The notes: generated by a model from the sequence alone, not told the origin. Numbered from the stretch's first letter, positions 3,121 to 64,000 are shown. The stretch is DNA of 64,000 bases from a virus (IMGVR_UViG_3300033121_001921:16537-80536), one strand, 5' to 3'. Numbers and translations: made by a program.

Positions 3121-3131
3121 TTTGTGAAATA

Positions 3132-3139: not shown

Positions 3140-3151
3140 GTTGAAAAAATA

Positions 3152-5113: not shown

Positions 5114-5513
5114 TTTTAGATTTTTTAATACATTCAGGACCGAATCCACTTTCAATCGATTCGGGAGTTGTCAACCTTCGTCCACACCTAGCACAACATC
5201 CTTCGTGCCAAACTTCAATAAACTTAGGAAGGGAAGACATATCCATCTTGCTGATAAACCACTTAAAAACATTTAAGCTGGGAGATCCCTCCTTAATCAG
5301 AGATCTGTTTGATCCTCTAAAGATATTTTGTGGAAAAATGGTACCAAGGAACTCATAGTGATCTGGAGAAGTAAGAACTGATACAAAAAACAGATCGTTG
5401 GATTTCGACTTACCAATTTTAAAGGTAAATCTATTGCCCGTTTTTGGATTTTTTATAGTAAAGATAGATTTTCCCGCAAAGATAAAATCCTTGATTCTAT
5501 CATGAGGAATCAT
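5097..5513 (-). CDS. DUF6011-like zinc-ribbon protein
   Basis: C-terminal CARCGRRLTTPESIESGFGPEC; start set at MIPHDR. Confidence 0.75.
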   Translation of the reverse strand: MIPHDRIKDFIFAGKSIFTIKNPKTGNRFTFKIGKSKSNDLFFVSVLTSPDHYEFLGTIFPQNIFRGSNRSLIKEGSPSLNVFKWFISKMDMSSLPKFIEVWHEGCCARCGRRLTTPESIESGFGPECIKKSKNGSNN

Positions 5514-5562
5514 TTTTACACTCATCCAACAAATATAAGAAATTTTTTCTTCCAATCAAATT

Positions 5563-5570
5563 AATATATA
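5563..5570 (+). promoter_or_regulatory. (A/T)ATATATA putative phage late promoter (also 16714, 18585, 24660, 25622, 28421, 33531, 35029, 37653, 39064, 41387, 50178, 51039, 53844, 54722, 57750)
   Basis: Recurs 3-20 nt upstream of start codons; analogous to the T4 late TATAAATA. Confidence 0.65.
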
Positions 5571-5575
5571 AATCA

Positions 5576-6433
5576 ATGATAAATGAGGCCGTATTCAGAA
5601 GTCCAAAGTGGCTAAGAGATTTTGTAGATTTCGAAGTCAATACAGGTGAAGATATAAAGGGCGAGCCTTCCAAGTCAGAATTGGAGAGGAGACGGAATAA
5701 AGAATGGAAGACAAAATGGGATAGAATCAAGAGGGATGATAAGATTTCCTTTATTGAAGACTACTTGAATTATGATCTTAGAAGGCATAATTCATCAATA
5801 ATAAATGATTTCCTTTCACGAATTGAGAATGATTTTATGGGCGATCAATCATTTATGGATGAATATGATAAGTGGCTGTCTAAGAAAATAGAAGAGAATC
5901 AAAGGCAGAAAAAAATAATTGATACACTAAACCAATTGCATGATAGCATTTGGTCTGATTATATAAAAAATCCCCATGGTGATAAATTCAAAACTCCAAA
6001 TGATAGGCATGGGAATAGATATTGGGAATATAGATTTGAGAATGGAAAAATTTGCCATCTTTCACCATCGACTAATAAATTGGAATTCGATGGTATTACC
6101 TATACACTTAATATTGAATTCAAAAATAAATTCATAGAGCTAGCAAATAGAATTGGTGAGACAAAACAAAGACCAAGAAATGCTAACAATAGGAATAATT
6201 CTTCTAATACAAAGACTAATCAAACAAAGGCAGACCCAAACAGAGAAAGGTATGAAAAGTTGAAGGGAATAGTTAAGATAAGAGAAGAACAATTATACAA
6301 AATGTCCTCTAGAGATCCCAACAGACCTTCACTTCAAAATGAATTAGATGCTTATAAGCAAAAGCTTAGATCTATGAAATCAGAATATAAATTTGAGTCA
6401 CTTATGTCCTTCAGCAACTTTTCAAAATTCTGA
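5576..6433 (+). CDS. hypothetical protein
   Basis: 285 aa ORF behind AATATATA. Confidence 0.75.
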   Translation: MINEAVFRSPKWLRDFVDFEVNTGEDIKGEPSKSELERRRNKEWKTKWDRIKRDDKISFIEDYLNYDLRRHNSSIINDFLSRIENDFMGDQSFMDEYDKWLSKKIEENQRQKKIIDTLNQLHDSIWSDYIKNPHGDKFKTPNDRHGNRYWEYRFENGKICHLSPSTNKLEFDGITYTLNIEFKNKFIELANRIGETKQRPRNANNRNNSSNTKTNQTKADPNRERYEKLKGIVKIREEQLYKMSSRDPNRPSLQNELDAYKQKLRSMKSEYKFESLMSFSNFSKF

Positions 6434-6804
6434 AACATCCAAATAGTGAATAGGAACTTCATCCACAATCTCATGCTTCTCATACAAAAGAATATTCTTT
6501 CCACCAAATTCCCAAGACTGATGTGAAGTGGATTCTAGATCAGACTGTCCGGATTCCTTTCTTCGAATTGAATTGGGATTTGTATAGAATCTTGATATGA
6601 TGCCTACAAGCATGTCCAAATTAGATTGACACTCAGCTGAATTTTCAAAAAATTTTGATATAGATAAATAGTCATCGTTTCCTTGAATATTCCACCCCCA
6701 CTTCATTGAATCTGGAATAGATTTTATTATCTCGGAAAGATTAGTCTGAGACATGGATGATATAGATGTTACCACACCTATCAACAAGGATATTTTAATT
6801 TCAT
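6422..6804 (-). CDS. hypothetical secreted/membrane protein with an apparent 1-nt deletion near the start
   Basis: ATG at 6804 overlaps the topoisomerase stop (ATGA); adding one A to the A-run gives MKLKISLLIGVVTSISS, a signal-peptide-like start. Confidence 0.5.
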
Positions 6805-8120
6805 TTGAATTTCTTTTTAAGTTCTGTTAAATCTTCTAAATACATATTCTTTGGAAGGAGAGATTTAGTCTTCTCAAGTTCGGATTTTCTTTCAAGAAAA
6901 TCTTCTTTTATTTTCTCAAACGTTTCCTTAGTCAATGAATTAATTGGCATTCTCAATAAATAGTCATAGTCTCCTTCTATCTTTTCTATATTTAGAGACT
7001 GAATTTGATCTACAATCTCTGATTTTGGTTTATTGTTTATTAAAATTTTCCCATCCAAGATAAATTTGATAAACTTACCTCTGTTACCTAGTAACTTCAA
7101 ATCATGGGCAATTCTCTCAATTAGATAATCCTTCCTCTTCTGATAGTAGGTTAATCTAAACTCTACAAAATACGAAACGATTTCCTCTACTGATTCAAAT
7201 ATTTTCAGCTTTCCGTTTTCATCAAGAGTTGTATATATCTCTGTTGAATATTCAATCAATTTGAACATCTTACATATTTCATGTTCGGACAGTATCTTCC
7301 CCCTATTCAACTTAACAACATAGTCTATATTGGATTTGCTATTATTCTTGAATGAGATTATGTATTTATCATCAACTAAATTATCCAAAATACTCTCATA
7401 CATTTCATATGTAAATGATGGAGGTATTTCTAAAATTCGTAATGTATTTCCAGATAATTCATATCTTCCCTTTATTATCCATCTCTTGGAATTTTCTTCA
7501 TCTTTGGTGAAGCTACCACTGAAATCATAAATTTCAGGAACCATTTCTTTTATTTTTTCTCCATTTACCGCTCTAATGCAATTATCTATTATAGATACAG
7601 GATTTCTATTCAGAATATTCATTGAAAATCCAACAGCAATTCCAGATCCACCATTTATTAAGATCATTGGTATTATTGGTAGATAAAATTTTGGTTCACA
7701 TTTAACCCCATCAATAGTCACATATTCTAATATTTCATTATCTTTGAATATGTAATCAAATGATTCAGAAATTCGAGTAGATATGTACCTAGAACTAGAG
7801 GCATGTGGATTTCTTAACGATCCATATATACCAATTTCTTCCAACATGGGAATATTGTTCTTAAATTTTTGAGCCATGTTAACCACAGCATCTTCAACAG
7901 AAACATTACCATGATGGTACTGAGTTTTGAAAATAACTTTCCCACCTAGAACATTAACTTTTATTTTCTCCCTTTTTTCTGAACTTAAAGAAAATAAAAT
8001 CTTCCTCTGAACAGGCTTCAGTCCATCACAAAAGCTTGGAATTGATCTGTTTTCTATAACATAGAAAGCAAATTTTTTGTAATCATTATCTAGAAAATTC
8101 GAAATACTAACGTTGTTCAT
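6801..8120 (-). CDS. DNA topoisomerase II, GyrA/ParC-like subunit (T4 gp52-like)
   Basis: DGLKPVQRKI, YHHGNVS, SSRY active-site Tyr, GIAVGF. Confidence 0.95.
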   Translation of the reverse strand: MNNVSISNFLDNDYKKFAFYVIENRSIPSFCDGLKPVQRKILFSLSSEKREKIKVNVLGGKVIFKTQYHHGNVSVEDAVVNMAQKFKNNIPMLEEIGIYGSLRNPHASSSRYISTRISESFDYIFKDNEILEYVTIDGVKCEPKFYLPIIPMILINGGSGIAVGFSMNILNRNPVSIIDNCIRAVNGEKIKEMVPEIYDFSGSFTKDEENSKRWIIKGRYELSGNTLRILEIPPSFTYEMYESILDNLVDDKYIISFKNNSKSNIDYVVKLNRGKILSEHEICKMFKLIEYSTEIYTTLDENGKLKIFESVEEIVSYFVEFRLTYYQKRKDYLIERIAHDLKLLGNRGKFIKFILDGKILINNKPKSEIVDQIQSLNIEKIEGDYDYLLRMPINSLTKETFEKIKEDFLERKSELEKTKSLLPKNMYLEDLTELKKKFK

Positions 8121-9825
8121 TTTTGTATATCCATTTTTTATTACCCGCCCCCCATATTAAATTGTATTTGCGGCTTTTCATTATTTCATATTCTGTTAAA
8201 TTTTTGTTATATCCATCTTTTATTAATTTTTTCTTATTAAAATTAAATCTGTGGTACTTTTTTTGGCCTATTGACCAGTAATAATTAATTGATTCTCCAT
8301 CGAATTCAAATCCCATTTTTCTGTACATGTCACCAGAATAATATGAATTATCAGAATAGGACACAACTATATCTGGTTTATAGAATTTCAAAAAGTACTT
8401 AAATAATCTAGAATATCCTCCAACAACACTTGTATTTATTTTATTGCAAAATCTCACAAGTTCTAAATTTTTTTTACCGTTGATGTATCTAGTATTAAAA
8501 CACATAACAGATACAATCTCATCTGATAATTTCAAACAAATATTGTATTTGCATTTTATTCCACCCTGAATATGATTATTTTCTAAAAATTCAAATGATT
8601 CATTATTACCAATCTCAAATACATTGCATTTTCTGGCAAATATTTTAGACGATTTACCTACCCTGTTCAAAATTATTGACTTAACAATGTTCTTTTTAAG
8701 AATCCAATCATCTTCCCATATTTGTATCAAATCTATTCCGATATCTGAGCAGAATCTCTTCTTTTCTAGGTGATATCTTTTAGATTTATAATCATCACAA
8801 TGCCAATATAAACCATTATATTCTATTCCGATATTAAGATCAGGCAACACAATATCTATCTCTATCCCATTTAAAAATTCTCTATCATTGAACAAAACAT
8901 TATCAATTTGAATATCTCTCTTTATCCAATCAAAAATTTCGGATTGACCTCCAGAAAAAGATCTTAATTTATTACATTCTAAACAGATAACTTTTCCATT
9001 TCGCAGTCTTTCATTCATTAGAGCACAATCTATATCAAATTCTTTTTCACACACTAAATGGTTTAGTCTGACTGATATCGGACAATTGACCCATTCTATG
9101 AATGAATAATCATTTCCAATCCTATTAGATATAGATATTTTATATTTTTCAGCGGAAATTTTCTTACAAATATCCGAAGATTGGTAATTATCGGCACCAT
9201 ATTTTTCCCTATTTGTTTCTAGTGTTTTTTTTATTGCCTCTGGAGATCTCAGTGTAGATCTAACACCATATTTATCAAATATTCTTTTAAAAAAATCTGT
9301 TTTGATCAGATCATTTTTCATCGGATTGGTATCTCCATATCTTTCTATATTGGTCTGTTTGATCTTATTTTTTACCTCCTCAGATTGAGAAGCATATTCA
9401 AATCCATATTTTTCAATATTTGTCTTCTTGGCCTTTTCTATGGACTTTTCAGATAATAGAGGCGACTTGAATCCATATTTATCAATAAATGTTTTCTCTA
9501 TCTTTTCTATTATTTCTGGTGATTTGGACGCATTATCATATCCAAATTTTTCCATACATGTTTTCTCATATTTAAAAATTGAGCATTTATGGGAGCAAGC
9601 AAATAAATTATGACTCTTGATATTACCCAAATAGGTTTGGTATTTCAATTCTTTTTCTTTATAGCAAAAATCACAAATGGCTGTTACCAGAACAGTACTG
9701 CAATCAGATAGATACTTTACATCTATATTCATTATCTCAGATAAGGTAGATTCGATTCCATCATTAATCAGCAGATCCTTGTATCTCTTATTTATTTTAA
9801 CTCTTATCGTTTTTGTCTTCAACAT
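8107..9825 (-). CDS. free-standing putative homing endonuclease (Zn ribbon, KYG repeats, Vsr/PD-(D/E)XK-like domain)
   Basis: CDFC...CSHKC, repeated KTNIEKYG units, EIDIVLPDLNIGIEYNGLYWH; lies between the two topo II genes. Confidence 0.75.
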   Translation of the reverse strand: MLKTKTIRVKINKRYKDLLINDGIESTLSEIMNIDVKYLSDCSTVLVTAICDFCYKEKELKYQTYLGNIKSHNLFACSHKCSIFKYEKTCMEKFGYDNASKSPEIIEKIEKTFIDKYGFKSPLLSEKSIEKAKKTNIEKYGFEYASQSEEVKNKIKQTNIERYGDTNPMKNDLIKTDFFKRIFDKYGVRSTLRSPEAIKKTLETNREKYGADNYQSSDICKKISAEKYKISISNRIGNDYSFIEWVNCPISVRLNHLVCEKEFDIDCALMNERLRNGKVICLECNKLRSFSGGQSEIFDWIKRDIQIDNVLFNDREFLNGIEIDIVLPDLNIGIEYNGLYWHCDDYKSKRYHLEKKRFCSDIGIDLIQIWEDDWILKKNIVKSIILNRVGKSSKIFARKCNVFEIGNNESFEFLENNHIQGGIKCKYNICLKLSDEIVSVMCFNTRYINGKKNLELVRFCNKINTSVVGGYSRLFKYFLKFYKPDIVVSYSDNSYYSGDMYRKMGFEFDGESINYYWSIGQKKYHRFNFNKKKLIKDGYNKNLTEYEIMKSRKYNLIWGAGNKKWIYKNEQR

Positions 9826-54734: not shown

Positions 54735-55286
54735 ATGGAAATTAAAAAATTTGTTGATTTCATTAGAGAAAGCATATCAGATACTCCCGAGGAGTATATA
54801 AAAATGGAATTAACAAAATTGAAGAGAAAAATAGATGGATTCTTCGAAAAGAAAGAAGAAGAATCTGATGGGAATAAGGTTTCAAATATGTCTGACGCCC
54901 TAAAAAAGGGGAAGGATCAAGAAAAATCAGAAAAAACTATATCATTTTCTGAACTTGGTCTTCAACTACAAAGCTCTGAAATAAGTAAATACTCAGCTCT
55001 ATATGATAATTTAGTGGTAAAATTTTCTGATGATGAGTTTCTTTATAATCTTTATGTTACAATTCCCCTAAAAGAAGCAGTTCCAGAAGAAGATGGAGAA
55101 TCAAAGAACATAAAAAAATGCTTCCTTAAATTCAAGAAATATGATCTAGATCACTTTGATTTAATTGGGCAGATCACAAGAAATACAGATATCGATAAAA
55201 TCGACGAAGATTATTTAGTATCTCTTAAGATAGATTTAGACGATGAATTTGATAAGAAAGAGGATTTAGGAATCGAAACCGAGTAA
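54735..55286 (+). CDS. hypothetical protein with CTS-like start
   Basis: MEIKKFVDFIRES, behind TATATATA. Confidence 0.75.
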   Translation: MEIKKFVDFIRESISDTPEEYIKMELTKLKRKIDGFFEKKEEESDGNKVSNMSDALKKGKDQEKSEKTISFSELGLQLQSSEISKYSALYDNLVVKFSDDEFLYNLYVTIPLKEAVPEEDGESKNIKKCFLKFKKYDLDHFDLIGQITRNTDIDKIDEDYLVSLKIDLDDEFDKKEDLGIETE

Positions 55287-55296
55287 TATATTCAAT

Positions 55297-55470
55297 ATGA
55301 ATAGGATGAAATCATTTAATGACTTTTCACATCTTCGTAAAGATATCTATAAAGATTTTGGATCAACTAATAGAGAAATAAACGAAATAGAGGTGTTAAG
55401 ACATATTGAAAATTTCATTATAGAAAATAAAATTGATGGACACAGAAAATGCAGACACGGTAAAGAATAA
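55297..55470 (+). CDS. 57 aa hypothetical protein immediately left of the array
   Basis: MNRMKSFNDFSHLRK...GKE*, translated by hand. Confidence 0.5.
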   Translation: MNRMKSFNDFSHLRKDIYKDFGSTNREINEIEVLRHIENFIIENKIDGHRKCRHGKE

Positions 55471-55491
55471 TTTTTAATCTATTTTTATTGT

Positions 55492-55545
55492 ACATAACGT
55501 CCGATGATAAACAATCGTTTTAATGTTGTTTATCATTTGTTATGT
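55492..55545 (+). repeat. hairpin H1 (near-identical to H14)
   Basis: acataac-gtccg-atgataaacaa/ttgtttatcat-tt-gttatgt. Confidence 0.9.
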
Positions 55546-55625
55546 GTAGGTGTGGATTATTAAGGTAGAATGTTTAATCGAAGAACTGAACAAAAATTTT
55601 AAAAGAAAAAGAAGGGTGAGAAGTT

Positions 55626-55907
55626 TTAATTCTTAAAGATTAATGAAAAATCATAGTTATCATATCCTTCTACAATTCTTATTTTTACACCTGTTATATG
55701 TCCGAATGAGCCATACCCAAATTCTTTACCTGTTGATTTTGTTATTTGTCTCCATTCAGTTTTGGAAATATTGTGAATAGGTATATCCTTACCTAAAATA
55801 TCTTCCATCTCCTTTAATGATTTTTCATAGTGTTCATCTTTTGGTTTCCCTATAATTAATCCAGGAAACATATTTTTGCTGTGAATTTCTTCAATTCTTA
55901 TTTTCAT
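55626..55907 (-). CDS. cassette hypothetical protein
   Basis: 93 aa ORF. Confidence 0.65.
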   Translation of the reverse strand: MKIRIEEIHSKNMFPGLIIGKPKDEHYEKSLKEMEDILGKDIPIHNISKTEWRQITKSTGKEFGYGSFGHITGVKIRIVEGYDNYDFSLIFKN

Positions 55908-55954
55908 AATTTTTTATTTTTAAAGATTTCTTTTCAATGTCTTTAAGTTCGTCT

Positions 55955-56080
55955 TTACCTCTTCCAAATTGTTACTACTTCAATAACACCACCACTCTTA
56001 ATATCGGTGTTTATACTTTCGTTTAAGAATTGTCCAAAATTCTTAACTTTATTTATTTGTTCTCTCATTTCTTTACTCAT
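55955..56080 (-). CDS. 41 aa ORF MSKEMREQINKVKNFGQFLNES..., starting in the H2 loop
   Basis: Hand translation; CTS-like KNFGQFLNES. Confidence 0.5.
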   Translation of the reverse strand: MSKEMREQINKVKNFGQFLNESINTDIKSGGVIEVVTIWKR

Positions 56081-56159
56081 AATTTTACTTTACTATCAAG
56101 TTTAGTGGTAAATTGAAAGTTCATCAAAGCAAACCTTCTCATACACCCAACCGTTATGT
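55996..56159 (-). repeat. hairpin H2 (left arm and loop like H7; right arm degenerate)
   Basis: acataac-ggttg-ggtgtatgagaaggtttgct on minus; GTT box apparently ATT. Confidence 0.65.
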
Positions 56160-56176
56160 GTAATAAAAAATAATTA

Positions 56177-56539
56177 TTATCCACTAAATGAAGCATCTCT
56201 ATCAGATACCATCCAACCATTGAGCATACTGGCTGGTCCATATATTCTCAAATTTTTAATGCTTGTTTTTTCTAAATGTTTTTTAATAGAATATAAAAGA
56301 TTTTTCACATTAGCTCTGCGAATACCATTATTAGATTCAGTTCTTAAAAGTTCTAATTTAGCAACTGAACTTGCTTTAAGTCCAAAATTAGTTTTATCTA
56401 TTATTGATTCCAAATAATCTAACATTTCATCATTAGAACCATTTTTTATTAAATTATCTATTTCTTTAATATATTTACGGTTTAGTGTTTTCCTAATTAA
56501 AGATTCATTAAGTTCATCAAATCTTTTGATATGTTTCAT
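56177..56539 (-). CDS. cassette protein with CTS-like start
   Basis: MKHIKRFDELNES. Confidence 0.75.
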   Translation of the reverse strand: MKHIKRFDELNESLIRKTLNRKYIKEIDNLIKNGSNDEMLDYLESIIDKTNFGLKASSVAKLELLRTESNNGIRRANVKNLLYSIKKHLEKTSIKNLRIYGPASMLNGWMVSDRDASFSG

Positions 56540-56564
56540 ATTGTATTAATTATTTTTTAATAAC

Positions 56565-56665
56565 ACATAACAAGGTGTATATGTAAGTTTTTTATTAGTT
56601 TTTTATTAGTGTATATATTAAAAAAAAATGTGAAAAAAACCTACATATACACCCAACCGTTATAG
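56565..56665 (-). repeat. hairpin H3 (loop contains AATATATAC)
   Basis: ggtgtatatgtaggttttt/aaaaacttacatatacacc stem. Confidence 0.9.
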
Positions 56666-56712
56666 GTAATTGTTTTAAAAATTCCCACACTCCTTAACAA
56701 TTTTCTTATTAA

Positions 56713-56868
56713 TTAACCTTGTTTATATTCTTGCAATACATACGGTAAATTCATTGAACTTACTCTGTTTTTGCTTTCATAAATAAATTGCCCGTGTTCG
56801 TTTTTTACGGCATCAATTTCTTTACAAAATTCTAATTCGTCTTTAATTAATTCGGTCATTGCATCCAT
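56713..56868 (-). CDS. small cassette protein MDAMTELIKDEL...
   Basis: Hand translation, 51 aa; possible 1-nt deletion at the 3' end. Confidence 0.55.
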   Translation of the reverse strand: MDAMTELIKDELEFCKEIDAVKNEHGQFIYESKNRVSSMNLPYVLQEYKQG

Positions 56869-56913
56869 TTTATTTAAGTTTAATTTACCAACGCTAATTT
56901 TTAAAACAACTAC

Positions 56914-57041
56914 CTATAACATAGTGTATATGTAATGTGAGGTTCAGTTGTATATTCAAAGTTTATATTTCTAATCAACATTTGTGGTTAAGTCAAGTTT
57001 CGTGTTTCAAATCTCACACTACATATACACAATCGTTCTGC
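56914..57041 (-). repeat. hairpin H4 (near-identical to H10, inverted)
   Basis: gtgtatatgtagtgtgag/ctcacattacatatacac stem. Confidence 0.9.
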
Positions 57042-57045
57042 GCAA

Positions 57046-57347
57046 TCATGAAACGAACAGCCGAACGGTCACAGGGCCTTCGCGGAAGTCGCCAGTGATT
57101 GTGCCGTCCACGTATTGCTCGTCACCCTTGCGGAAGTTCTTCCACTTCCATGGGAGCGGCGTTGCATCGTAATCGCCTTGACCAAGGCCAACGGCAGCAT
57201 TGAGCAGGTGCTGCCTGCCGTGAAGCCTTTGGCCTCAGCCCACGCCTGGGCCGCGTAGTATGCCTCCCATGTTCCCTTGTTATCGAACGTGGCCTGCTCC
57301 ACCACTGGCTTATTGACCCTGACCGTTCCACCTATTCGCTTTCGCAT
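57046..57347 (-). CDS. GC-rich (about 61%) cassette gene with a 1-nt frameshift at about 57178
   Basis: MRKRIGGTV...LALVK/GDYDATPLPWKWKNF...GPVTVRLFVS*. Confidence 0.7.
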
Positions 57348-57381
57348 TATTGTTGAGTTTTGAGTGAGTTGAAAAGACCGC

Positions 57382-57459
57382 GCAGAACATGCAGCTATGC
57401 GGCATGCCTCAACACAGGTCCAACGCGCTGCACGCCGCATAGCTGCTGAACCGTTATAT
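57382..57459 (-). repeat. hairpin H5 (GC-rich)
   Basis: gcagctatgcggc/gccgcatagctgc perfect 13-bp stem. Confidence 0.9.
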
Positions 57460-57537
57460 TCAATTAAACAAAAAATTATGAGTTTTTAATTGCTTCTAAT
57501 ATTTGTTGTTATATTTAGTAAAAATTAATTTATACCT

Positions 57538-57702
57538 ATGAAAAAAGAACAATATGCAGTTTATGAAAAAGAACCAAGACACGGAAAAGATAAAAACGGA
57601 GTGATACTTGCACCATTTAACACTAAGGAAGAAGCCGAAGAAGCAGGTAAGAAATATGGTTATTATGGTGATAATTACTATGTAGATAAACTCATAAATT
57701 AA
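57538..57702 (+). CDS. 54 aa cassette protein MKKEQYAVYEKEPRHG...
   Basis: Hand translation. Confidence 0.65.
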   Translation: MKKEQYAVYEKEPRHGKDKNGVILAPFNTKEEAEEAGKKYGYYGDNYYVDKLIN

Positions 57703-57712
57703 TTTTTATCGA

Positions 57713-57847
57713 ATATAACGGTTCTCAGATATATTTAGGTTTTCATTTTAATATATACACTAAAATAACAAAAGAAGATGAAACTTTTAAAAACACAAAA
57801 ACAGTTGAACGAAGCATCGGAAAACTTGAATATATCTGATGTTAGTG
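57713..57847 (+). repeat. hairpin H6 (loop holds AATATATAC and an ATG)
   Basis: tcagatatatttaggtttt/aaaacttgaatatatctga stem. Confidence 0.9.
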
Positions 57848-58119
57848 AGAGTAAAAAATTAGACAAAACTCTATCAAACCCCGAGTTCGATAATCTTATC
57901 GATAAATTATCTGAGATGGGTGTATCACATGATGACGTAGAAAAGTTTAAAGAGTATTCAATCGAATTTGAGAACGAAAATGATGAATATGAAAAGAAGG
58001 CGATTTTAGATACATTCTCATTAGATATATCAATGGATTATGAAAGTTTATACGATGAAGTGGAAGATGATATATCAGACTTATATTATGAGACAGGATT
58101 AGACCCTATGGAGTTTTAA
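57778..58119 (+). CDS. acidic cassette protein starting inside H6
   Basis: MKLLKTQKQLNEASENLNISD|V; GTT is in frame. Confidence 0.75.
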   Translation: MKLLKTQKQLNEASENLNISDVSESKKLDKTLSNPEFDNLIDKLSEMGVSHDDVEKFKEYSIEFENENDEYEKKAILDTFSLDISMDYESLYDEVEDDISDLYYETGLDPMEF

Positions 58120-58130
58120 TTTTTTATTCT

Positions 58131-58225
58131 TACTAACGTTTGGGTGTATGAGAAGGTTTGCTTTGATGAACTTTCAAAATCACCACTAAACTTGATAGCA
58201 AACTTTCTTATACACCTTGTTATAT
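58131..58225 (+). repeat. hairpin H7
   Basis: ggtgtatgagaaggtttgct/agcaaactttcttatacacc stem. Confidence 0.9.
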
Positions 58226-58343
58226 GCTGTGCGGATTTAACCACTAAACTACCTACGAAGAACAGAACCTTTTTGTTTTATTTTTGTGGGTGGAAAATTA
58301 AAATTTGAATATTTATATATATATAATAAAACTATTTAATAGT

Positions 58344-58799
58344 ATGGAATTAAGAAAATTTATAGCAACTACTATACGTGAATATTTGAATGAAAGTCAA
58401 ATCGAACAAATTAGAAATACTGGGCTATCAGTTAGTAATAAAATTGAAGGTGGCTTTTTAACTAAAAAAGAAGTTGATGAACTTCAAAGAGAAATTGAAT
58501 CAAATTATGATACAACACCTAAATTTGGACAAGATAGTAATGACATAAGAAAACGTTTGTATAATTATGATAATCCTTATGCAGAAAAAGATATTAATGG
58601 TGTTAATTTAAGAATAGTACAAGGTTTGATAGAGGGTGAGCCATATTCTGGTAATAGAAGAAAAACTTGGTTATTATATGCTGATGGTAAAATTGTTGGT
58701 AAATTTTATAAAGTGGATGATATTAAAAAAGTTATTAAACATATTGAAGATAATTTAGTTAAATCAATATCTAATAATCCAAAAGAATTGGGTGGGTAA
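58344..58799 (+). CDS. cassette protein with CTS-like start
   Basis: MELRKFIATTIREYLNES, behind a TATATATA tract. Confidence 0.75.
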   Translation: MELRKFIATTIREYLNESQIEQIRNTGLSVSNKIEGGFLTKKEVDELQREIESNYDTTPKFGQDSNDIRKRLYNYDNPYAEKDINGVNLRIVQGLIEGEPYSGNRRKTWLLYADGKIVGKFYKVDDIKKVIKHIEDNLVKSISNNPKELGG

Positions 58800-58858
58800 A
58801 AATAAAACAAAAAGAATGTTACGATGAAACTTAATATGAAGTACCAATGTAGCATTGC

Positions 58859-58988
58859 ATATAACGGCTGCGTGTATGAAACGTAATGGATTAGATGCAC
58901 TAAACTTTAAACATAAAATGAACTATAATAGAAATATGAACTTTAAATATACCACTGAAACCATTATGTTTTATACACGATGTTAGCA
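58859..58988 (+). repeat. hairpin H8
   Basis: gtgtatgaaacgtaatgg/ccattatgttttatacac stem. Confidence 0.9.
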
Positions 58989-59077
58989 GTAGTACGGATT
59001 TAAACCACAAATGCTCAATCGAAGAACTGAACCTTTTTTTCTTTTCTTTTTGTGCGGTGGGAAAATAAAATTGAATA

Positions 59078-59875
59078 ATGGAACGAAATATAATTTATAA
59101 CGAAGATTGTAAGATTACCTTGAAAAAACTTCAAGATAAATCTATTGATGGTGTAATTACATCACCACCATATAATATAAATACTGAAAGAAGCGATTGT
59201 TATTACAATAACGGATATTCTGAATTGGATGGGTTAAGTGAAAATGATTATCTTGAAGTAAGAACTAATGAATTTAAAGAATTTTCAAGAGTGATAAATG
59301 ATACTGGTGTAATTTGCTATAACATATCTTATGCAAAAGAAAATCCAATACTACCAACATTGTTGGTTGCTAAAATTCACAATGAAACTGATTTAACTAT
59401 TGCGGATATTATTTGTTGGAAGAAACCAAATGCTATACCTTTTCAGACTTCACCAACTAAATTGAGTAGGATTACTGAATTGATTTATGTTTTTGTGAAG
59501 AAAGAGCATTTACACACATTCAAAACCAACAAGGAAGTAAGTAAGGTAAATAAAAAAACAGGTCAAAAGTTTTACAAAAACTATGTGAATTATATTGAAG
59601 CAAGAAACAATGACGGATACCAATGTCAATTGAAAGCATCATTTTCGCAAGATTTAGTAAATCAATTAATAAATATTTATTTTCCAAAAGGTAGTTTAAT
59701 TTACGAACCGTTTACTGGAATAGGGACTACACAATTAAGTTGTATTGAAAATGAATGTGATTACATTGGTAGTGAATTAGTAAAAGACCATTATGAAATT
59801 GCTTTAGAGAGGGTTAGAGAAAAAAGAAAAGAAAAAGAATTTAATCTAATAACTTCATTCGGAGATGGGATGTAG
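59078..59875 (+). CDS. N6/N4 DNA methyltransferase (beta-class motif order), solitary
   Basis: TSPPYN precedes YEPFTGIGTT. Confidence 0.9.
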   Translation: MERNIIYNEDCKITLKKLQDKSIDGVITSPPYNINTERSDCYYNNGYSELDGLSENDYLEVRTNEFKEFSRVINDTGVICYNISYAKENPILPTLLVAKIHNETDLTIADIICWKKPNAIPFQTSPTKLSRITELIYVFVKKEHLHTFKTNKEVSKVNKKTGQKFYKNYVNYIEARNNDGYQCQLKASFSQDLVNQLINIYFPKGSLIYEPFTGIGTTQLSCIENECDYIGSELVKDHYEIALERVREKRKEKEFNLITSFGDGM

Positions 59876-59881
59876 TATTAC

Positions 59882-59939
59882 TGCTAACGGACAGGCATTG
59901 CCGCCGTTGCATTTGAATGGCGGCAATGCAGTGTTAGGC
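59882..59939 (+). repeat. hairpin H9 (GC-rich)
   Basis: gcattgccgcc/ggcggcaatgc stem. Confidence 0.9.
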
Positions 59940-59971
59940 CACGTTCTTTTAACTTTCAAAAGCAAAAGGCA

Positions 59972-60235
59972 ATGAAGCGATTTCACGAAACCGCTGATGG
60001 CAAGTTCATTGAACTAAAGGACTTGACAGACGAGCACCTTGCCAACATCATAAAGATGATTGAACGCAAGGCCAAGGATGGCATTGATCTCGTGTTCGGC
60101 GGAGGACACGGTGATTACGAAGAAATGTGGGGTGATGTTGAACACCTGCATGGGCAGGAAGTCTTTGACCACTTCGGGTACGAGAAGTACAAGAAAGAGC
60201 AGCGTCGTCGTATTCGTCTTCGGAATGTGGCCTAA
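59972..60235 (+). CDS. cassette protein (about 48% GC); stop TAA lies inside the terminal TAAC box
   Basis: ELKDLTDEHLANII...; GCC TAA C. Confidence 0.75.
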   Translation: MKRFHETADGKFIELKDLTDEHLANIIKMIERKAKDGIDLVFGGGHGDYEEMWGDVEHLHGQEVFDHFGYEKYKKEQRRRIRLRNVA

Positions 60236-60358
60236 CGATTTGGTGTATATGTAGTGTGAGATTTGAAACACTAAACTTGACTGAACTACAAATGTTGATT
60301 AGAATGATGAACTTGAATATACCACTGAACCTCACATTACATATACACCTTGTTATGT
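60230..60358 (+). repeat. hairpin H10
   Basis: ggtgtatatgtagtgtgag/ctcacattacatatacacc stem. Confidence 0.9.
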
Positions 60359-60536
60359 GTAGGTGTGCTTATTTATCACCAACCTTCAATCGGAGAACTG
60401 AAAGAAAATTTTAGAAAAAAGAAGGGAGGGAAATTTTTAATAATTTTTAATCTTTGTGTCCTTAAATTTTTTATTTAAGAATTTTTTGTTATATTTGTAG
60501 AGTTGAATTAGTATTAATAACTAAATAAAAAATAAA

Positions 60537-61115
60537 ATGAATATAAATGAATTAACAAACCCAATAAAAGTGTGTGATTTATCATTAAACGAAAATGACA
60601 ATGATAGAGCATTGTGGAATATAACATGGAACAGAGATGTTGATAACACAATCCTTTCACAGAAAAATGGTAGATGTTATTATATTGTTGTTAATGGTGA
60701 AATATTCAAGATAGGATATTCAGATTGTGATGGTGGTATAAAATCAACCATAGGCTCATATAGAAGTTCTGGTAATTCCGGGAGACCTTCTGATAGAACA
60801 CATGGTATTCATGTTTTAATAGCGGAGCAATTATTATTAGGCAATAAAGTTGAAATATACTTTCATTATAATCCACTTATAAATGTTAATTTAACACTTA
60901 TGGATGGTTCTGTTGTTTCAATAGAAAATTCAATTTCTGGTAAAATATTAGAATTAAAAAACATGGAAATATATAAAAATAAACATAATGATTTTCCTGT
61001 TTGGAATTTACAAGAGGCTGGAAAACCTTGGCCGACACACATACAAGAAAGTAGAAATAACTTATTATCGGGAAATCCTTTAAAATTAAATGAAATAAAA
61101 GAAAGATTATTTTAA
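60537..61115 (+). CDS. putative GIY-YIG restriction-type endonuclease (Hpy188I-like)
   Basis: GRCYYIVVNGEIFKIGYSD...IKSTIGSY...VEIYF pattern, recalled similarity only. Confidence 0.55.
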   Translation: MNINELTNPIKVCDLSLNENDNDRALWNITWNRDVDNTILSQKNGRCYYIVVNGEIFKIGYSDCDGGIKSTIGSYRSSGNSGRPSDRTHGIHVLIAEQLLLGNKVEIYFHYNPLINVNLTLMDGSVVSIENSISGKILELKNMEIYKNKHNDFPVWNLQEAGKPWPTHIQESRNNLLSGNPLKLNEIKERLF

Positions 61116-62011
61116 TCTTTCTTTTTAACTATTAATATTTCGTGTGATTTTTTAACTACTTCACTATTGTTCAATTCTATTCTATTCTTACCAATTCTTT
61201 TTTCACCATTACTCATAGAATAATTCCACTCTGGAAAATAAAAATCAAAATCTTTGTAGTATTCTCTTATTGTTTCACAATTATTATACGAAAGGACAAA
61301 ATCACCATTATGTGATAATAGTAAATCTCTTAATAATTCGTGATCAAAACCACTATGATGAACATCTATATTTTTCATCGGATACATACCTTTGTGCATT
61401 TTATTATCACTATCTTTATCTAAAAAATAAGGTGGGTCAAGATACAAAAAATCGTTTTTATGTTTTATTATAGATTTTTCAAATGGTAATTGTTCAACTT
61501 TTAGATTATCACATTTGAAATCTTTTATTTTATCTATCATAGATCTCCATTTTTTATCATTTAGATAAACACTTGAACCCCAACCTAAATAACCTGGACC
61601 ATAAGAACAATTGTGATTGAAATAATAATATGCTGCCAACTTTATATCATCCAACTTTATTATATTTTCTCTTTTGTAGTGATCAGTATTCCAATCTTTC
61701 AACATTTCTTGCGTCTTATCTAAACACATCAATATTTCTTTAATTCTAATATACTCACTATCTGTTGGTTGTATTTTTAATAACTCATTATACAATTCTT
61801 TTGGTTTGTTTAGTAATATATTCCAAAAATTAACAAGTACATCAAATACATCATATCCAACAACTTCTTTATTTAGGTTTCCTGACCAATGGACTTCAAG
61901 GGATCCACCACCAATAAAGGGAGATACTATTTTATCATATTTTTCAACAAATGGTGTTATCTGTTTAATGGCTTTACTTTTACCACCAGCATATCTTAAT
62001 AATGTTTTCAT
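61112..62011 (-). CDS. D12/Dam-class N6-adenine DNA methyltransferase
   Basis: LRYAGGKSK, SPFIGGGS, YLDPPY. Confidence 0.92.
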   Translation of the reverse strand: MKTLLRYAGGKSKAIKQITPFVEKYDKIVSPFIGGGSLEVHWSGNLNKEVVGYDVFDVLVNFWNILLNKPKELYNELLKIQPTDSEYIRIKEILMCLDKTQEMLKDWNTDHYKRENIIKLDDIKLAAYYYFNHNCSYGPGYLGWGSSVYLNDKKWRSMIDKIKDFKCDNLKVEQLPFEKSIIKHKNDFLYLDPPYFLDKDSDNKMHKGMYPMKNIDVHHSGFDHELLRDLLLSHNGDFVLSYNNCETIREYYKDFDFYFPEWNYSMSNGEKRIGKNRIELNNSEVVKKSHEILIVKKKD

Positions 62012-62137
62012 AAATAAATTTCTTTTTCTTTTATATATTAAATTCCAAAATTAGTTTTCTGTATTTTCTGTAAAATAAATAAAACTTTATGAAATAATTA
62101 ATATATAAATTATAGTAGAAAAATTAAAAATAGTTTG

Positions 62138-62287
62138 ATGAAAAAGAGACGAGATAAAGAATACTTTACATTAAATCCAGAAGTTAGAAAAGAATTTCTA
62201 AAACATATAGAGGAAAATAACCTAAATAAATCAAAGTTGATAGAAACTCTTATAGAGGAATATATGAAAAAAGTTAAAGAAAAATAA
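62138..62287 (+). CDS. 49 aa ribbon-helix-helix-like putative regulator
   Basis: MKKRRDKEYFTLNPEVRKEF...NKSKLIETLIEEYM, hand translation. Confidence 0.55.
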   Translation: MKKRRDKEYFTLNPEVRKEFLKHIEENNLNKSKLIETLIEEYMKKVKEK

Positions 62288-62395
62288 AAAAATTTCTTAT
62301 CTTTGTGTTCTTAAAAAATTATTAAAAATGTGCGGTGGGTTTTTTCTAAAATTTTCTAACACAAAAGTTGATTCGGAGGACAGAACCACACTTAC

Positions 62396-62584
62396 ACATA
62401 ACGGTAGGGCGGTTGGCGCAGTGCGTATTATTAACGATAAACTAAATTAGAATGAAAGCAGAAGATTTTTACAAACAACGAAGCAACTCAATAAGGGAGT
62501 TGTGGGCATTATCACCAAAGCAAATTGAATACATAGGTTTGATTATGGAAGAGTATGCAGCATTGCGCCAACCGCCTGTTAGCA
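62396..62584 (+). repeat. hairpin H11 (loop encodes the first part of an ORF)
   Basis: ggcggttggcgcagtgc/gcattgcgccaaccgcc stem. Confidence 0.9.
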
Positions 62585-62676
62585 GCAGTTTTTCATCTGA
62601 AAGCGACCATATTTGTATGATGTACTTAGATAAGCAAAGAACTTGTATGGTTTGCGGTAAACAAAATTGCTGCTAA
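62452..62676 (+). CDS. 74 aa protein spanning H11 and a 100-bp cassette
   Basis: ...ALRQPP|VSSS...CMVCGKQNCC, stop in TAAC. Confidence 0.7.
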   Translation: MKAEDFYKQRSNSIRELWALSPKQIEYIGLIMEEYAALRQPPVSSSFSSESDHICMMYLDKQRTCMVCGKQNCC

Positions 62677-62791
62677 CGTTTTGCGTATATACGCAGTGCA
62701 ACCGAAAACTTTATTTGAAACACAAAAATTGAAATTATGATAAAAAATTTGATTGAAAAACTGAAAGCATTGCGTATATACGCTGTTATAA
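62671..62791 (+). repeat. hairpin H12 (ATG in loop)
   Basis: gcgtatatacgcagtgc/gcattgcgtatatacgc stem. Confidence 0.9.
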
Positions 62792-62991
62792 GCCGTTTTT
62801 TATTTCCATACAAAACTTGGATTGAAATGAGAGAAAAATCTAAAGACGAGTATGGAGAAAAATTATGCTACTGTGGACATACCTATAAATGCACTTGTTC
62901 CAATCCAGATAAAACTTTGTTTAAGGAAAGTATAAAACGTGGTAGTATAATTTTATGGGATAAAGAGAACGGTTGGAAAAATGGCTTATAA
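62737..62991 (+). CDS. 84 aa protein starting inside H12
   Basis: MIKNLIEKLKALRIYA|VISR...CYCGHTYKCTC, stop in TAAC. Confidence 0.72.
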   Translation: MIKNLIEKLKALRIYAVISRFLFPYKTWIEMREKSKDEYGEKLCYCGHTYKCTCSNPDKTLFKESIKRGSIILWDKENGWKNGL

Positions 62992-63116
62992 CGGCTGACG
63001 CTATACGAAGGTGGGGATTAAGATGCACAACCCTTGCTTACCGCACAAAAGCAAATTAGATGCACAACTGTACAATTTTGGCACACAGCCCCACTTTTGT
63101 ATAGCGTATGTTATAG
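62986..63116 (+). repeat. hairpin H13
   Basis: acgctatacgaaggtgggg/ccccacttttgtatagcgt stem. Confidence 0.9.
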
Positions 63117-63134
63117 GCTGTTAAAAAGAATTTT

Positions 63135-63386
63135 ATGACAACTGTTAAAGAACTTAGAGAATTACTCGCAACAATGCCTGATGATTATGAAGTGGTTATT
63201 TATCCGAAATATTCATCCGATAAAGTTGATGGATATAGAAAGCACAGATTTAGAATTGACCAAGTTTGTGAACAAGAACCGTATGCTGTATCAATTAAAG
63301 ACGATGCTGAAAAATTAAAAACTTATTTCGGGAGTAAAGATTATGAAGAATATGAGGTAAATAACCACGTAGCTATTCTTTTTTAA
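63135..63386 (+). CDS. cassette hypothetical protein
   Basis: MTTVKELRELLATMPDDYEV. Confidence 0.75.
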   Translation: MTTVKELRELLATMPDDYEVVIYPKYSSDKVDGYRKHRFRIDQVCEQEPYAVSIKDDAEKLKTYFGSKDYEEYEVNNHVAILF

Positions 63387-63390
63387 TTGC

Positions 63391-63444
63391 CTATAACGTC
63401 TGATGATAAACAATCGTTTTAATGTTGTTTATCATTTGTTATAT
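63391..63444 (+). repeat. hairpin H14 (near-identical to H1)
   Basis: atgataaacaa/ttgtttatcat stem. Confidence 0.9.
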
Positions 63445-63477
63445 TTTAGTATCAAAAATTTTATACAAATTAAAAAT

Positions 63478-63849
63478 ATGAAAAAAGAAAAAGCGGAAAA
63501 GGAAATAAAACAACTATTAGATAGTGGTTTAAGTTTTGATTACAAAATTGATATGAATATCATAAATAAACAAATGTTCTGTATTGAACGGGAAGGATTT
63601 TCTATGGGCGATATTATATCAAAACTTAAAGAAGGTGAGAAAATTTTGTTCTATCTTAACGATGGTTATAGATCAGATTGGGATGATAAGAAAGGATATT
63701 CACCTCTTTATCAAATAAAAGATAGAGAAGGAAGTATCTATTGGAAACATGACACTTATGGAGAGTGTGTTCGTATAGATAGTGATATGGGTTCAATCAG
63801 AGAATGGTGTAACGAATTAAACGAAATTTATAGTATAAAAAATTCATAA
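63478..63849 (+). CDS. cassette hypothetical protein
   Basis: Start set at MKKEKAEKEI. Confidence 0.7.
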   Translation: MKKEKAEKEIKQLLDSGLSFDYKIDMNIINKQMFCIEREGFSMGDIISKLKEGEKILFYLNDGYRSDWDDKKGYSPLYQIKDREGSIYWKHDTYGECVRIDSDMGSIREWCNELNEIYSIKNS

Positions 63850-63864
63850 AATTTTTGATATTGA

Positions 63865-63995
63865 ATATAACGGTTGCAGATATACTCAATTTGGGATTAA
63901 ATAGTAGAAACTTTAAAATTAAGATAAAATGAATAAAGAGAAACAAGAGTGGGATAAACATCTAACACCCAAATTGGGTATATCTGATGTTATGC
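63865..63995 (+). repeat. hairpin H15 (ATG in loop)
   Basis: cagatatactcaatttggg/cccaaattgggtatatctg stem. Confidence 0.9.
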
Positions 63996-64000
63996 AACGT
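63929..64000 (+). CDS. partial ORF starting inside H15
   Basis: MNKEKQEWDKHLTPKLGISD|VMQR, GTT in frame. Confidence 0.6.
   Translation, partial: MNKEKQEWDKHLTPKLGISDVMQR

Follow-up and report, generated by a model that had tools for sequence, protein, structure and literature searches.

The viral DNA analysed here (64,000 nucleotides, called the window below) carries at 55.5-64 kb what we consider, with good confidence, to be a cassette array resembling that of an integron, with at least 14 mobile cassettes, which would be exchanged at TAAC|G by a Xer-like catalyst acting on a folded single-stranded substrate. The hairpins are recombination sites, and they bound mobile cassettes. A shuffled cassette array on attC-like hairpins had been proposed in the original prediction, and this is supported by exact joints and by variant cassette orders in other contigs. 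The features are listed in Table 1. The end of the contig (80.5 kb) falls inside the array.

Table 1. Features of the cassette array; positions are those of the window.
Feature	Position	Strand	Remarks
H1, short hairpin	55496-55541	+	Stem 11-13 bp, loop TCGTTTTAATG; opens the array
Conserved tail (~90 nt) after H1	55542-55640	+	GTTATGTGTAGGTG...AATCGAAGAACTGAAC...; direct repeats D13, D7 with the tail after H10
Inverted block	55626-57455	-	Cassettes in minus-strand order H5, H4, H3, truncated H2
ORFs of the inverted block	57350-57069 (GC-rich), 56868-56713, 56539-56177, 56080-55955, 55907-55626	-	
H2, truncated hairpin	56077-56161	-	5' arm and loop only, 3' arm missing; inverted repeats I2/I16 with H7
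H3, hairpin	56569-56661	-	
H4, hairpin	56918-57037	-	92% inverted copy of H10 (I1, I4)
H5, GC-rich hairpin	57386-57455	-	Part of GC-rich cassette 57035-57452
Hairpin 3'-half remnant (~57490-57512) and cassette body	57490-57719	+	26-bp terminal inverted repeat (I18) around ORF 57538-57702
H6, hairpin	57717-57843	+	Cassette 57720-58137; loop holds start of ORF 57778-58119
H7, hairpin	58135-58221	+	Tail to ~58300; cassette 58138-58865, ORF 58344-58799
H8, hairpin	58863-58984	+	Tail to ~59075; cassette 58866-59888, N6/N4 DNA methyltransferase 59078-59875
H9, GC-rich hairpin	59886-59935	+	GC-rich cassette 59889-60236, ORF 59972-60235
H10, hairpin	60234-60354	+	Cassette 60237-62402 between inverted ~80-nt tails 60351-60440 and 62326-62402
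Genes of the H10 cassette	60537-61115; 61112-62011 (-); 62135-62287		Putative endonuclease; D12 adenine methyltransferase; 50-aa ORF
H11, hairpin	62400-62580	+	Cassette 62403-62677; loop holds start of ORF 62452-62676
H12, hairpin	62675-62787	+	Cassette 62678-62992, ORF 62737-62991
H13, hairpin	62990-63112	+	Cassette 62993-63397, ORF 63135-63386
H14, short hairpin	63395-63440	+	Cassette 63398-63871, ORF 63478-63849
H15, hairpin (to 63991) and cassette start	63869-64000	+	ORF from 63931; cut off by the contig end

There are 15 hairpin sites (14 intact, one truncated) at positions 55496-63991, with the design TAAC-G-(3-5 nt)-stem-loop-stem-(0-2 nt)-T-GTTA. A strict scan required AACG, a spacer, a perfect stem of at least 8 bp, a second spacer and TGTT; it returned 13 sites, every one within this region, and an extra, chance-like match at 28462. 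A more lenient scan, covering all 80.5 kb of the contig, yielded H7 and H8 in addition, and no site scoring 12 or more with AACG/TGTT in the remaining 72 kb. Together with the truncated copy, the two scans give the count predicted earlier (15 hairpins, 14 intact, in 8.5 kb). The clustering of the sites is non-random. Applied to a wider set of 180 loci, the scanner returned 611 sites, versus 36 in reversed-sequence controls. Counted from AAC and GTT, the 5' spacers measure 4-6 nt and the 3' spacers 1-3 nt, and each gap holds 1-3 ORFs; these values agree with the earlier ones. Stems have 11-26 bp and loops ~11-145 nt (11-20 bp and ~10-130 nt in the original description).

At all intact sites, the structure is closed by (Y)TAAC ... 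GTTA(K). The G:T mismatch that had been described as fixed is indeed present; it forms a wobble pair by which the TAAC/GTTA helix is closed on one of the strands only. Stems are unlike between sites, while TAAC/GTTA and a wobble at position 11 are kept. In an alignment of the short hairpins, no fixed extrahelical base was found. Three pairs are near-identical repeats: H1/H14 (stem and loop identical, also to hairpins of many viral contigs), H4/H10 and H2/H7 (88-90% identity, in inverted orientation).

The ends of a cassette fit each other. In the window, the GTT side of one site pairs with the AAC side of the next over 14-25 bp, while the two flanks of one site pair over just 4-7 bp (at most 13 bp with interruptions). 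Own-end pairing is also found inside the inverted block (H5 to H4, 15 bp; H4 to H3, 25 bp). Among 368 cassettes from 180 loci, own ends pair at 9.3 of 13 positions, versus 6.1 in controls (same-site flanks or skip-one), and 70% have a T.G wobble at position 11. The GC-rich cassettes have both ends exactly at AAC|G. In the inner stem, compensatory changes were found in 12 of 12 pairs, with 380 doubly changed cells versus 115 in shuffles, and 92.8% of positions are paired versus 33-52% when the partner is slid. Neutral scoring gave 600 G.T versus 92 A.C, indicating a strand-specific fold. In 343 of 360 cassettes, it is the mRNA strand that folds. One third of the ORFs begin in the hairpin loop, and GTT is in frame in 82 of 113 of those. 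Because the hairpins lie on the mRNA-sense strand, covariation and G.U bias are equally compatible with an RNA role.

Based on these features, a cassette would consist of G-spacer-hairpin-T-GTTA, a variable inverted repeat, the gene or genes, the complement of that repeat and TAAC. In a free cassette circle, both ends and the hairpin of the gene-sense strand are predicted to combine into a single long, imperfect hairpin. Its outer part would be a 12-25-bp helix ending in TAAC/GTTA, with the conserved T.G wobble at position 11. The middle would be an asymmetric bulge (5 nt versus 1-2 nt) and the inner part a covarying helix. Strand exchange is proposed to occur at TAAC|G, where the outer helix meets the bulge, so that whole cassettes could be inserted, excised and reordered. 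Recombination probably uses single-stranded DNA in folded form; as in integrons, one strand would be exchanged and replication would resolve the product. Further events, not predicted by this model, are required for the inverted block and the two truncated hairpins.

Contigs from other metagenomes and assemblers (JGI, ENA, NCBI, Logan) carry the same cassettes at ~99% identity (98-99.9%), deleted or reordered. The variant joints are exactly at TAAC|G and link unrelated hairpins. Examples are 59884 to 62399, 63391 to 63866 and 62673 to 63394; the only shared bases are TAACGG, TATAACG or TAACGT (6-7 bases), an overlap far below the 31-mer of the assembler. The H9 cassette and c10 are both missing from contigs of runs X6 and X1, with a joint at TAACGG, and the H14 cassette is precisely missing in X6 (31-kb contig) and X10, with a joint at TATAACG. 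Other orders are found in contigs L191, L195 and L192. The order in L191 is c8, c12, c11, two new cassettes, c13, c15, c9. In both L191 and L195, the H12 cassette directly follows the methyltransferase cassette, and the H9 cassette is placed after the H15 cassette, which runs on in L185, L191 and L194. In a relative with 75% identity, the array is absent from the corresponding locus. Cassette content and order thus vary between strains; a fixed order had been named as evidence against shuffling. The contigs record only the end products of rearrangement; neither an excised circle nor a single-stranded intermediate was seen.

A candidate enzyme comes from related phages. Of 37 arrays whose downstream end can be seen, 15 are closely followed, in the same strand orientation, by a gene for a 266-residue Xer-like tyrosine recombinase; among arrays with at least six sites, this applies to 10 of 13. 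No copy was seen on the opposite side of an array. The protein matches PF00589 and PF13495. It scores 155 bits against TIGR02249 (integron integrase; cut-off 265) and aligns colinearly to XerA (4A8E). The alignment to VchIntIA is in two pieces, with 37 residues against 85 in IntIA; thus, the recombinase lacks the IntI-specific insertion. In recombinase-linked arrays, the last cassette ends in TAAC|, followed by a conserved non-hairpin (attI-like) sequence, 50-70 nt before the ATG of the recombinase (16 related loci). Hairpin families of the window (H1, H3, H6, H7) recur beside recombinases. Judged by these relatives, the enzyme is likely a Xer-like tyrosine recombinase rather than an HUH enzyme or a reverse transcriptase.

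It had been predicted that no recombinase gene is in view, and the 80.5-kb contig indeed has no recombinase and no match to PF00589 or PF01797. The conserved attI-like motif was not found in the window. In sister contigs that extend past the window end, the array closes at TAAC|TATTGC... without a recombinase, and the neighbouring gene codes for an 879-residue PKD-domain protein. The suggested search for a linked recombinase thus succeeded in relatives, but not in the contig or at the sister array ends. In the lineage of the window phage, the enzyme may come from another part of the genome, from a co-infecting phage or from the host.

Members of the hairpin family were found in over 119 viral contigs as well as in cultured phages of Flavobacteriaceae, and the window phage is probably a phage of Bacteroidota. 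The original designation as a jumbo phage has a single basis, a CheckV estimate of 28% completeness for the 80.5-kb fragment. The cargo comprises two DNA methyltransferases, one of them paired with a putative endonuclease, and otherwise small proteins without known function. This cargo suggests an accessory, counter-defence gene bank. At its ends, the H8 methyltransferase cassette shares ~90% identity with one from Flavobacterium phage mymlan6-1; conservation is high at the ends only.

Small accessory genes flanked by stem-loops are known from T4-type phages, where PeSL "mobile regulatory cassettes" in hyperplastic regions are shuffled between genomes, thought to occur through sequence homology of the promoter-stem-loop repeats. 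Similarly, the hairpins might be regulatory stem-loops (terminators or promoter-linked) and the genes might be shuffled through ordinary homologous recombination of similar copies. Near-identical hairpins and tails exist (H1/H14, H4/H10, H2/H7), and the hairpins stand between co-oriented genes on the sense strand. Also, the tails, with their very high metagenomic depth, could support homologous exchange. We nevertheless regard this as very unlikely. Joints link unrelated hairpins with 6-7 shared bases, TAAC/GTTA and the position-11 wobble are kept although stems are wholly different, and a dedicated site-specific tyrosine recombinase and an attI-like site occupy a fixed end of such arrays. A still lower probability is given to hairpins that act as RNA only (as processing sites, mRNA stabilisers or in translation control via the loop-held start codon), with polymorphism of unrelated cause. 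The predominance of mRNA-strand folds (343 of 360 cassettes), the third of ORFs that start in a loop (GTT in frame in 82 of 113) and the common G.U pairs would all fit. Left unaccounted for are DNA breakpoints exactly at TAAC|G, own-end pairing across the gene, and the linked recombinase with its attI-like site. An additional RNA role may exist alongside recombination.

Each unit begins directly behind TAAC and has TAAC as its last bases, with a 5' subterminal hairpin, a one-strand fold and no target duplication. This resembles "peel and paste" transposition of the IS200/IS605 type by an HUH Y1 transposase, with a unit inserting 3' of TAAC and recreating TAAC at its own end. We consider it slightly more remote again: the contig has no PF01797 match, no Y1/HUH family turned up among ORF clusters that recur in 180 loci, and those array-nearest clusters that were scanned against Pfam matched the tyrosine recombinase and cargo genes, with no PF01797 among them. 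In addition, the hairpin is at one end only, the right end being without one; IS200/IS605 elements have subterminal hairpins at both ends. We give hardly any credence to MITEs scattered between genes by a classical transposase. Their hallmarks are partly present (length of 46-180 nt, terminal inverted repeats, several near-identical copies), but the arms covary rather than stay conserved, there are no target-site duplications and no linked transposase, and GC content and joints indicate that hairpin and downstream gene travel as one unit.

Thus, cassette exchange by a Xer-like recombinase is the preferred reading. Gene stockpiling and shuffling is the textbook role of integrons, which count as bacterial and IntI-dependent. 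We lean, with some reservation, towards the view that Bacteroidota phages carry a second kind of integron. It would have a short Xer-like recombinase without the I2 helix and its own site design (long outer helix, fixed T.G wobble, asymmetric bulge), with genes on the folding strand, and would be a route by which unrelated phages, from ~38-kb siphoviruses to jumbo phages, exchange accessory genes, including those for anti-restriction. The window would represent a member without recombinase, and its cassettes would still undergo reshuffling in wastewater and river communities. If so, hairpin-site cassette capture has more than one origin or is older than the IntI-specific domain; the I2 helix is thought to have let integron integrases use single-stranded hairpins. 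There would be a concrete mechanism for hyperplastic accessory regions of large phages. The movement of orphan methyltransferases and other counter-defence genes between unrelated phages would also be explained. The recombinase and its site would be a compact pair that is directly testable.

The phage arrays share many features with integrons. Both consist of small, mostly single-gene cassettes with an order that varies between strains, as in sedentary chromosomal integrons especially. Their sites are imperfect hairpins closed by AAC/GTT boxes, and those of the window agree with attC (RYYYAAC / GTTRRRY). The crossover is at AAC beside an unpaired central bulge, in a strand-specific fold. Cassette boundaries are at the AAC/GTT core, and the cassette start is complementary to its own far end. 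In relatives, an attI-like site and a tyrosine recombinase gene are at one fixed end, with the polarity of the integron bottom strand. The original prediction had placed the ORFs on the wrong side of the site as compared to integrons. This requires correction: the AACG...TGTT strand corresponds exactly to the integron bottom strand, with the order hairpin, cassette body, next AAC and, downstream in sense orientation, attI-like site and recombinase gene; only the ORFs are flipped. An earlier likeness to the Flavo-1 motif did not hold up: RF01705 has no match at the gathering score over the 64 kb, and there is no Rfam match at E<=10 over 55000-64000.

The differences concern enzyme, site, gene orientation and carrier. 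The phage enzyme has 266 residues, is Xer/XerA-like, scores below the integron-integrase cut-offs and lacks the IntI-specific domain (I2 helix). The outer helix has 12-25 bp with a fixed T.G wobble, as opposed to the 7-bp R box of integrons, and the spacer is asymmetric, whereas the central spacer of attC is roughly symmetric (~5 nt on each side) and its stem has extrahelical bases. In integrons, each gene precedes its own attC on the top strand and is driven by Pc beside attI. Phage cassettes code on the bottom-like, folding strand; they are therefore transcribed towards the recombinase, without Pc-type logic. Finally, the carriers here are phages.

In CTX-type phages and other Xer-dependent elements, a Xer-family tyrosine recombinase acts on an attP that is folded from one strand. 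A single strand is exchanged and the product is resolved by replication. There, whole elements are integrated at the chromosomal dif site by host XerCD, in contrast to cassette arrays with their own recombinase.

Phage clusters of attC sites without integrase (CALINs) have been described (Qi, Rajabal, Ghaly, Tetu and Gillings 2023; PMC9892861), and the sites were treated as ordinary attC recruited from bacterial integrons. One of them, P12002L_attC1 (their Table S3), was called as attC within a CALIN. It belongs to the family described here, sharing the TAACG...TCGTTTTAATG...TGTTA design with H1 and H14. HattCI called one site of the hairpin family in P12002L, and this array carries DNA methyltransferases, with no integrase nearby. 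P12002L_attC1 was the only one of six sites that was not recombined by IntI1, which is the only published test for the family (PMC9892861). A dedicated Xer-like recombinase, an attI-like site, the extended own-end helix and the flipped gene orientation are not part of that account (PMC9892861). CALINs are defined by at least two attC sites called with the IntegronFinder/HattCI models and no integrase in the vicinity; the window array and its sister contigs likewise have no integrase close by. If our reading is correct, "CALIN" calls of the IntegronFinder type in phages may represent a separate system rather than integron debris.

The contig from which the window was taken (IMG/VR; 80,536 bp, classed as linear and 28% complete) contributes its final 64 kb, so that the window end is also the contig end. 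A strict scan detected 13 AACG...TGTT hairpins, every one within 55496-63991, and 1 chance-like match elsewhere. A lenient scan of the entire contig added H7 and H8 (hairpin sites are numbered H1 to H15) and returned no site comparable to the array hairpins in the remaining 72 kb. With a truncated copy at about 56077-56161, the two scans bear out the original prediction of 15 sites, 14 of them intact, and its spacers, stem sizes, loop sizes and one to three ORFs per gap all agree with them. Eleven sites are on the plus strand, and the truncated site and three others fall within an inverted block (55.6-57.46 kb), the genes of which are likewise on the minus strand. The inverted block (55626-57512) consists of four cassettes between truncated H2, which has lost its 3' arm, and a remnant 3' half-hairpin (~57490-57512). 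Rfam scans with the gathering score and with E<=10 yielded nothing beyond two microRNA-like matches on H3, both ascribed to chance. An exact 28-mer from H15 retrieved zero further viral contigs, and deposited phages offer a single nucleotide match, of 87 nt at 92% identity, in Flavobacterium phage vB_FspS_mymlan6-1.

The array consists of cassettes, each running from the G that follows one TAAC to the next TAAC, with the hairpin ahead of its gene or genes. Because GC-rich units in the array (see table) include the hairpin at their 5' end, the hairpin moves together with its downstream gene. In the window, the sequence from the GTT of one site pairs with the sequence ending in the AAC of the next over 14-25 bp (10 bp, a G:T wobble, then 3-14 bp), whereas pairing between the flanks of any one site is limited to 4-7 bp (as many as 13 if interruptions are allowed). 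As a circle, a cassette would thus form one continuous outer helix, an asymmetric bulge, an inner helix and a loop. Such a circle would open between TAAC and G, which is seen as the array junction. Among 368 cassettes from related loci (median size 411 bp), the two ends of a cassette pair at a mean of 9.3 of 13 positions, compared to 6.1 in each of two controls. Their outer helix follows the consensus ATTRYNNMTAAC ... GTTAKNNRYAGT, and position 11 is a T.G wobble in 70%. For 343 of 360 cassettes, the hairpin strand also carries the longest ORF; this longest ORF begins inside the hairpin loop in 113, of which 82 read GTT as valine.

The array varies in nature. In a relative with ~75% nucleotide identity, synteny extends to 55286; ordinary large genes follow, with no hairpin in the 10 kb beyond the end of synteny. 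Between 39% and 97% of the sampled array words are present in each of 20 public runs, which belong to 13 studies of wastewater, activated sludge or river, and joints lacking one or more cassettes were read from contigs of four of these runs (see table). These are not assembly chimeras, since 6-7 shared bases cannot yield a chimera in a 31-mer assembly. Where a run leaves parts uncovered, as X6 and X10 do at 60.5-62.1 kb, these were counted only if bridged by a contig. Joints with low support (a side <30 or 'between: not known'), such as 60357 to 63867 and 57524 to 63380, were excluded from the evidence. The same cassettes occur in contigs from JGI, ENA, NCBI and Logan, produced by other assemblers. 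In one of these sister contigs (L191), the order is c8 (the cassette starting at H8; 99.9% identity), c12, part of c11, two cassettes that the window lacks, then c13, c15 and one resembling c9. Another (L195) has the left half of the window, followed by c8, c12, c11, two new cassettes, c13, c15, c9 and more. A third, L192, comes from a metagenome bin at NCBI and has a 5.9-kb unit (2224-8166) between two array hairpins, directly after the H15 cassette. Order and content thus clearly vary between the run contigs, L191, L192 and L195, in line with the shuffled gene bank that had been proposed. The 5.9-kb unit codes for proteins of 804, 585 (Eco57I family) and 319 aa.

Features of the array and joints that lack cassettes (X numbers denote metagenome runs)
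Feature	Position	Strand	Details
Raised-GC stretch	57035-57452	minus	starts just past AAC, ends with next AAC, 5' hairpin included
Raised-GC stretch	59889-60236		starts just past AAC, ends with next AAC, 5' hairpin included
Raised-GC stretch	62403-62677		starts just past AAC, ends with next AAC, 5' hairpin included
Cassette c10	60237-62402		192-aa putative endonuclease, phrog_1111, 3.2e-9
Cassette c10	60237-62402		D12-class adenine methyltransferase, convergent to endonuclease, PF02086, 3.9e-27
Cassette c10	60237-62402		50-aa ORF as third gene
Conserved ~90-nt tail	55542-55640		after H1
Conserved ~90-nt tail	58222-58300		after H7
Conserved ~90-nt tail	58985-59075		after H8
Conserved ~90-nt tail	60355-60440		after H10
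Tail copy, inverted	62326-62402		closes cassette c10
Joint	59884 to 62399		c9 and c10 absent; X6 (sides 882 and 275 nt), X1; shared TAACGG
Joint	63391 to 63866		c14 absent; X6 (31,219-nt contig), X10; shared TATAACG
Joint	62673 to 63394		c12 and c13 absent; X6; shared TAACGT
Joint	55499 to 58138		H1's AACG to H7 absent, inverted block included; X2 (44.7-kb contig); no shared letters reported

Of 17 cassette proteins tested against PHROGs and Pfam, 14 had no match below thresholds. With its three genes, c10 resembles a small restriction-modification-type module that travels in a single cassette, with ~80-nt inverted tails on either side. The tails have the layout GTTA...GGATTTAAACC...AATCGAAGAACTGAACC, a T-rich run and GTGCGGTGGG, and are 92% identical to a stretch in mymlan6-1; they behave as long imperfect terminal repeats. 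Their summed depth in metagenomes reaches 330x, compared to about 20x in neighbouring sequence. A methyltransferase cassette (58866-59888) and its counterpart in mymlan6-1 (3513-4400) are ~90% identical at their ends but only ~50% in the gene between. On the 5' side the shared stretch is ~95 nt long; on the 3' side it measures ~85 nt and takes in the last ~20 codons. Summed depth is 130-330x at the ends versus 16-28x in the middle. It is as if the ends were retained while the cargo was swapped. In mymlan6-1, AGCTTGCTTATAAC is found ahead of the first hairpin of the array (925-940) and again at the end of the last cassette (5165-5180), which could be a footprint of array building. This last cassette is followed by TACAATATT..., not by a hairpin.

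The same site type occurs in cultured phages. Phage mymlan6-1 (38.5 kb), found via the 87-nt match, has an array around four methyltransferase genes, and Polaribacter phage P12002L also carries such sites. The latter is among 17 phage 'CALINs' (attC clusters without an integrase), and its P12002L_attC1, as listed in the primer table, has the design of H1 and H14, including the loop TCGTTTTAATG; of six sites assayed with IntI1, it was the sole one without recombination (Qi et al. 2023, PMC9892861). Full-text literature searches returned no account of this system other than the CALIN report. A pattern search on the loop TCGTTTTAATG retrieved at least 119 stretches from IMG/VR and 58 from a set with one genome for each of 185,579 prokaryote species, the latter mostly on short contigs from Bacteroidota metagenome bins. 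When 98 distinct 48-nt hairpins of the H1/H14 type are aligned, the inner stem has compensatory changes in 12 of 12 pairs, and 92.8% of its cells are paired; sliding the partner lowers this to 33-52%. The TAAC and GTTA boxes and the loop are invariant, being fixed by the search pattern. This 11-nt loop, again as fixed by the pattern, sits on wholly different covarying stems in at least 119 viral contigs. At stem positions 5-6, a T-A/A-T pair is almost fixed (94/98 and 83/98). To judge from the alignment, the loop and this pair look like protein contacts. A general scanner detected 611 sites in 180 loci, versus 36 in reversed controls, the longest array having 19 sites.

Counted with a neutral scorer, the stems contain 600 G.T versus 92 A.C. 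A scorer favouring G.T (1044 G.T versus 73 A.C) had been discarded and replaced by the neutral one. As G.T is far above A.C even so, the hairpin strand is the strand that folds. Across all loci, the wobble has G on the 5' arm and T on the 3' arm 532 times, and the reverse 68 times. Given this strand-specific fold, the wobble kept in the outer helix, the differing spacers of partner sites and the integron precedent, single-stranded DNA is the preferred substrate. A double-stranded, Xer/dif-like reaction was set aside: we infer that the second strand exchange of the classical reaction would be blocked, since the spacers of partner sites differ. Neither an excised circle nor a single-stranded intermediate was seen among the contigs, which represent end products only. 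The hairpins may additionally act in RNA.

The candidate catalyst emerged when all ORFs of the loci were clustered. The second most widespread family codes for a protein of ~267 residues, encoded at a median of ~300 nt from a hairpin and never located within an array. It is a tyrosine recombinase (PF00589 at 1.6e-36, plus a SAM_4 N-terminal domain), and the motifs visible in its alignment with VchIntIA (the GLRVSE arginine, HQLRHS, GHS and the IYTH tyrosine) are those expected of active enzymes of this class. The named families nearest to it are archaeal XerA, integron integrase, XerD and XerC, with each match under the cut-off; of solved structures, P. abyssi XerA is nearest and VchIntIA comes next. 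The alignment with VchIntIA is in two pieces, with 37 residues opposite 85 in the integron integrase, in the region that bears the specific insertion of integron integrases. In all 16 loci of its cluster, the gene shares the strand of the hairpins and lies downstream of the array, 160-900 nt past the last hairpin. Of 37 arrays for which 1.5 kb or more of downstream sequence is visible, 15 have the gene in this position, as do 10 of 13 arrays of six or more sites. Hairpins adjoining recombinases include the families of H1, H3, H6 and H7 from the window. Metagenomes contain at least 120 clusters of this protein (77-99% identity, nearly all with a length of exactly 266 residues); their contigs reach 354 kb, and the source annotation is just 'XerD'.

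The window had been described as lacking an integrase gene. This holds for the whole contig, in which PF00589 has no match; neither has PF01797. In sister contigs that extend past the window end, the array closes at ...ATTGTGTATAAC, followed by TATTGCAAAT, two small ORFs and a gene for an 879-residue PKD-domain protein, with no recombinase. None was found in an 80-kb relative (G001), which says little because that record is only a 31% fragment, and Pfam gave no match for mymlan6-1 gp001 and its neighbours, which were candidates. The lineage of the window is in the recombinase-less state, as are mymlan6-1 and P12002L. Turnover of its array may be catalysed by a copy of the recombinase encoded elsewhere in the genome, which is perhaps 290 kb long, by an enzyme from a co-infecting phage, or by a Xer enzyme of the host.

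Where an array is linked to a recombinase, its last cassette closes with TAAC, followed by a conserved sequence instead of a hairpin. This attI-like site, written as TAAC directly followed by TAGATTATAT..., reads TA(G/T)ATTATAT... or G(T/G)GGGGTTAGA... and lies 50-70 nt ahead of the recombinase start. The bottom strand of an integron is the one on which attCaadA7 reads AACG...TGTT. Compared to the bottom strand of a canonical integron, the phage arrays have the same order of hairpin sites, attI-like site and recombinase gene in sense. The sole difference in layout is that the cassette genes are flipped in the phage arrays.
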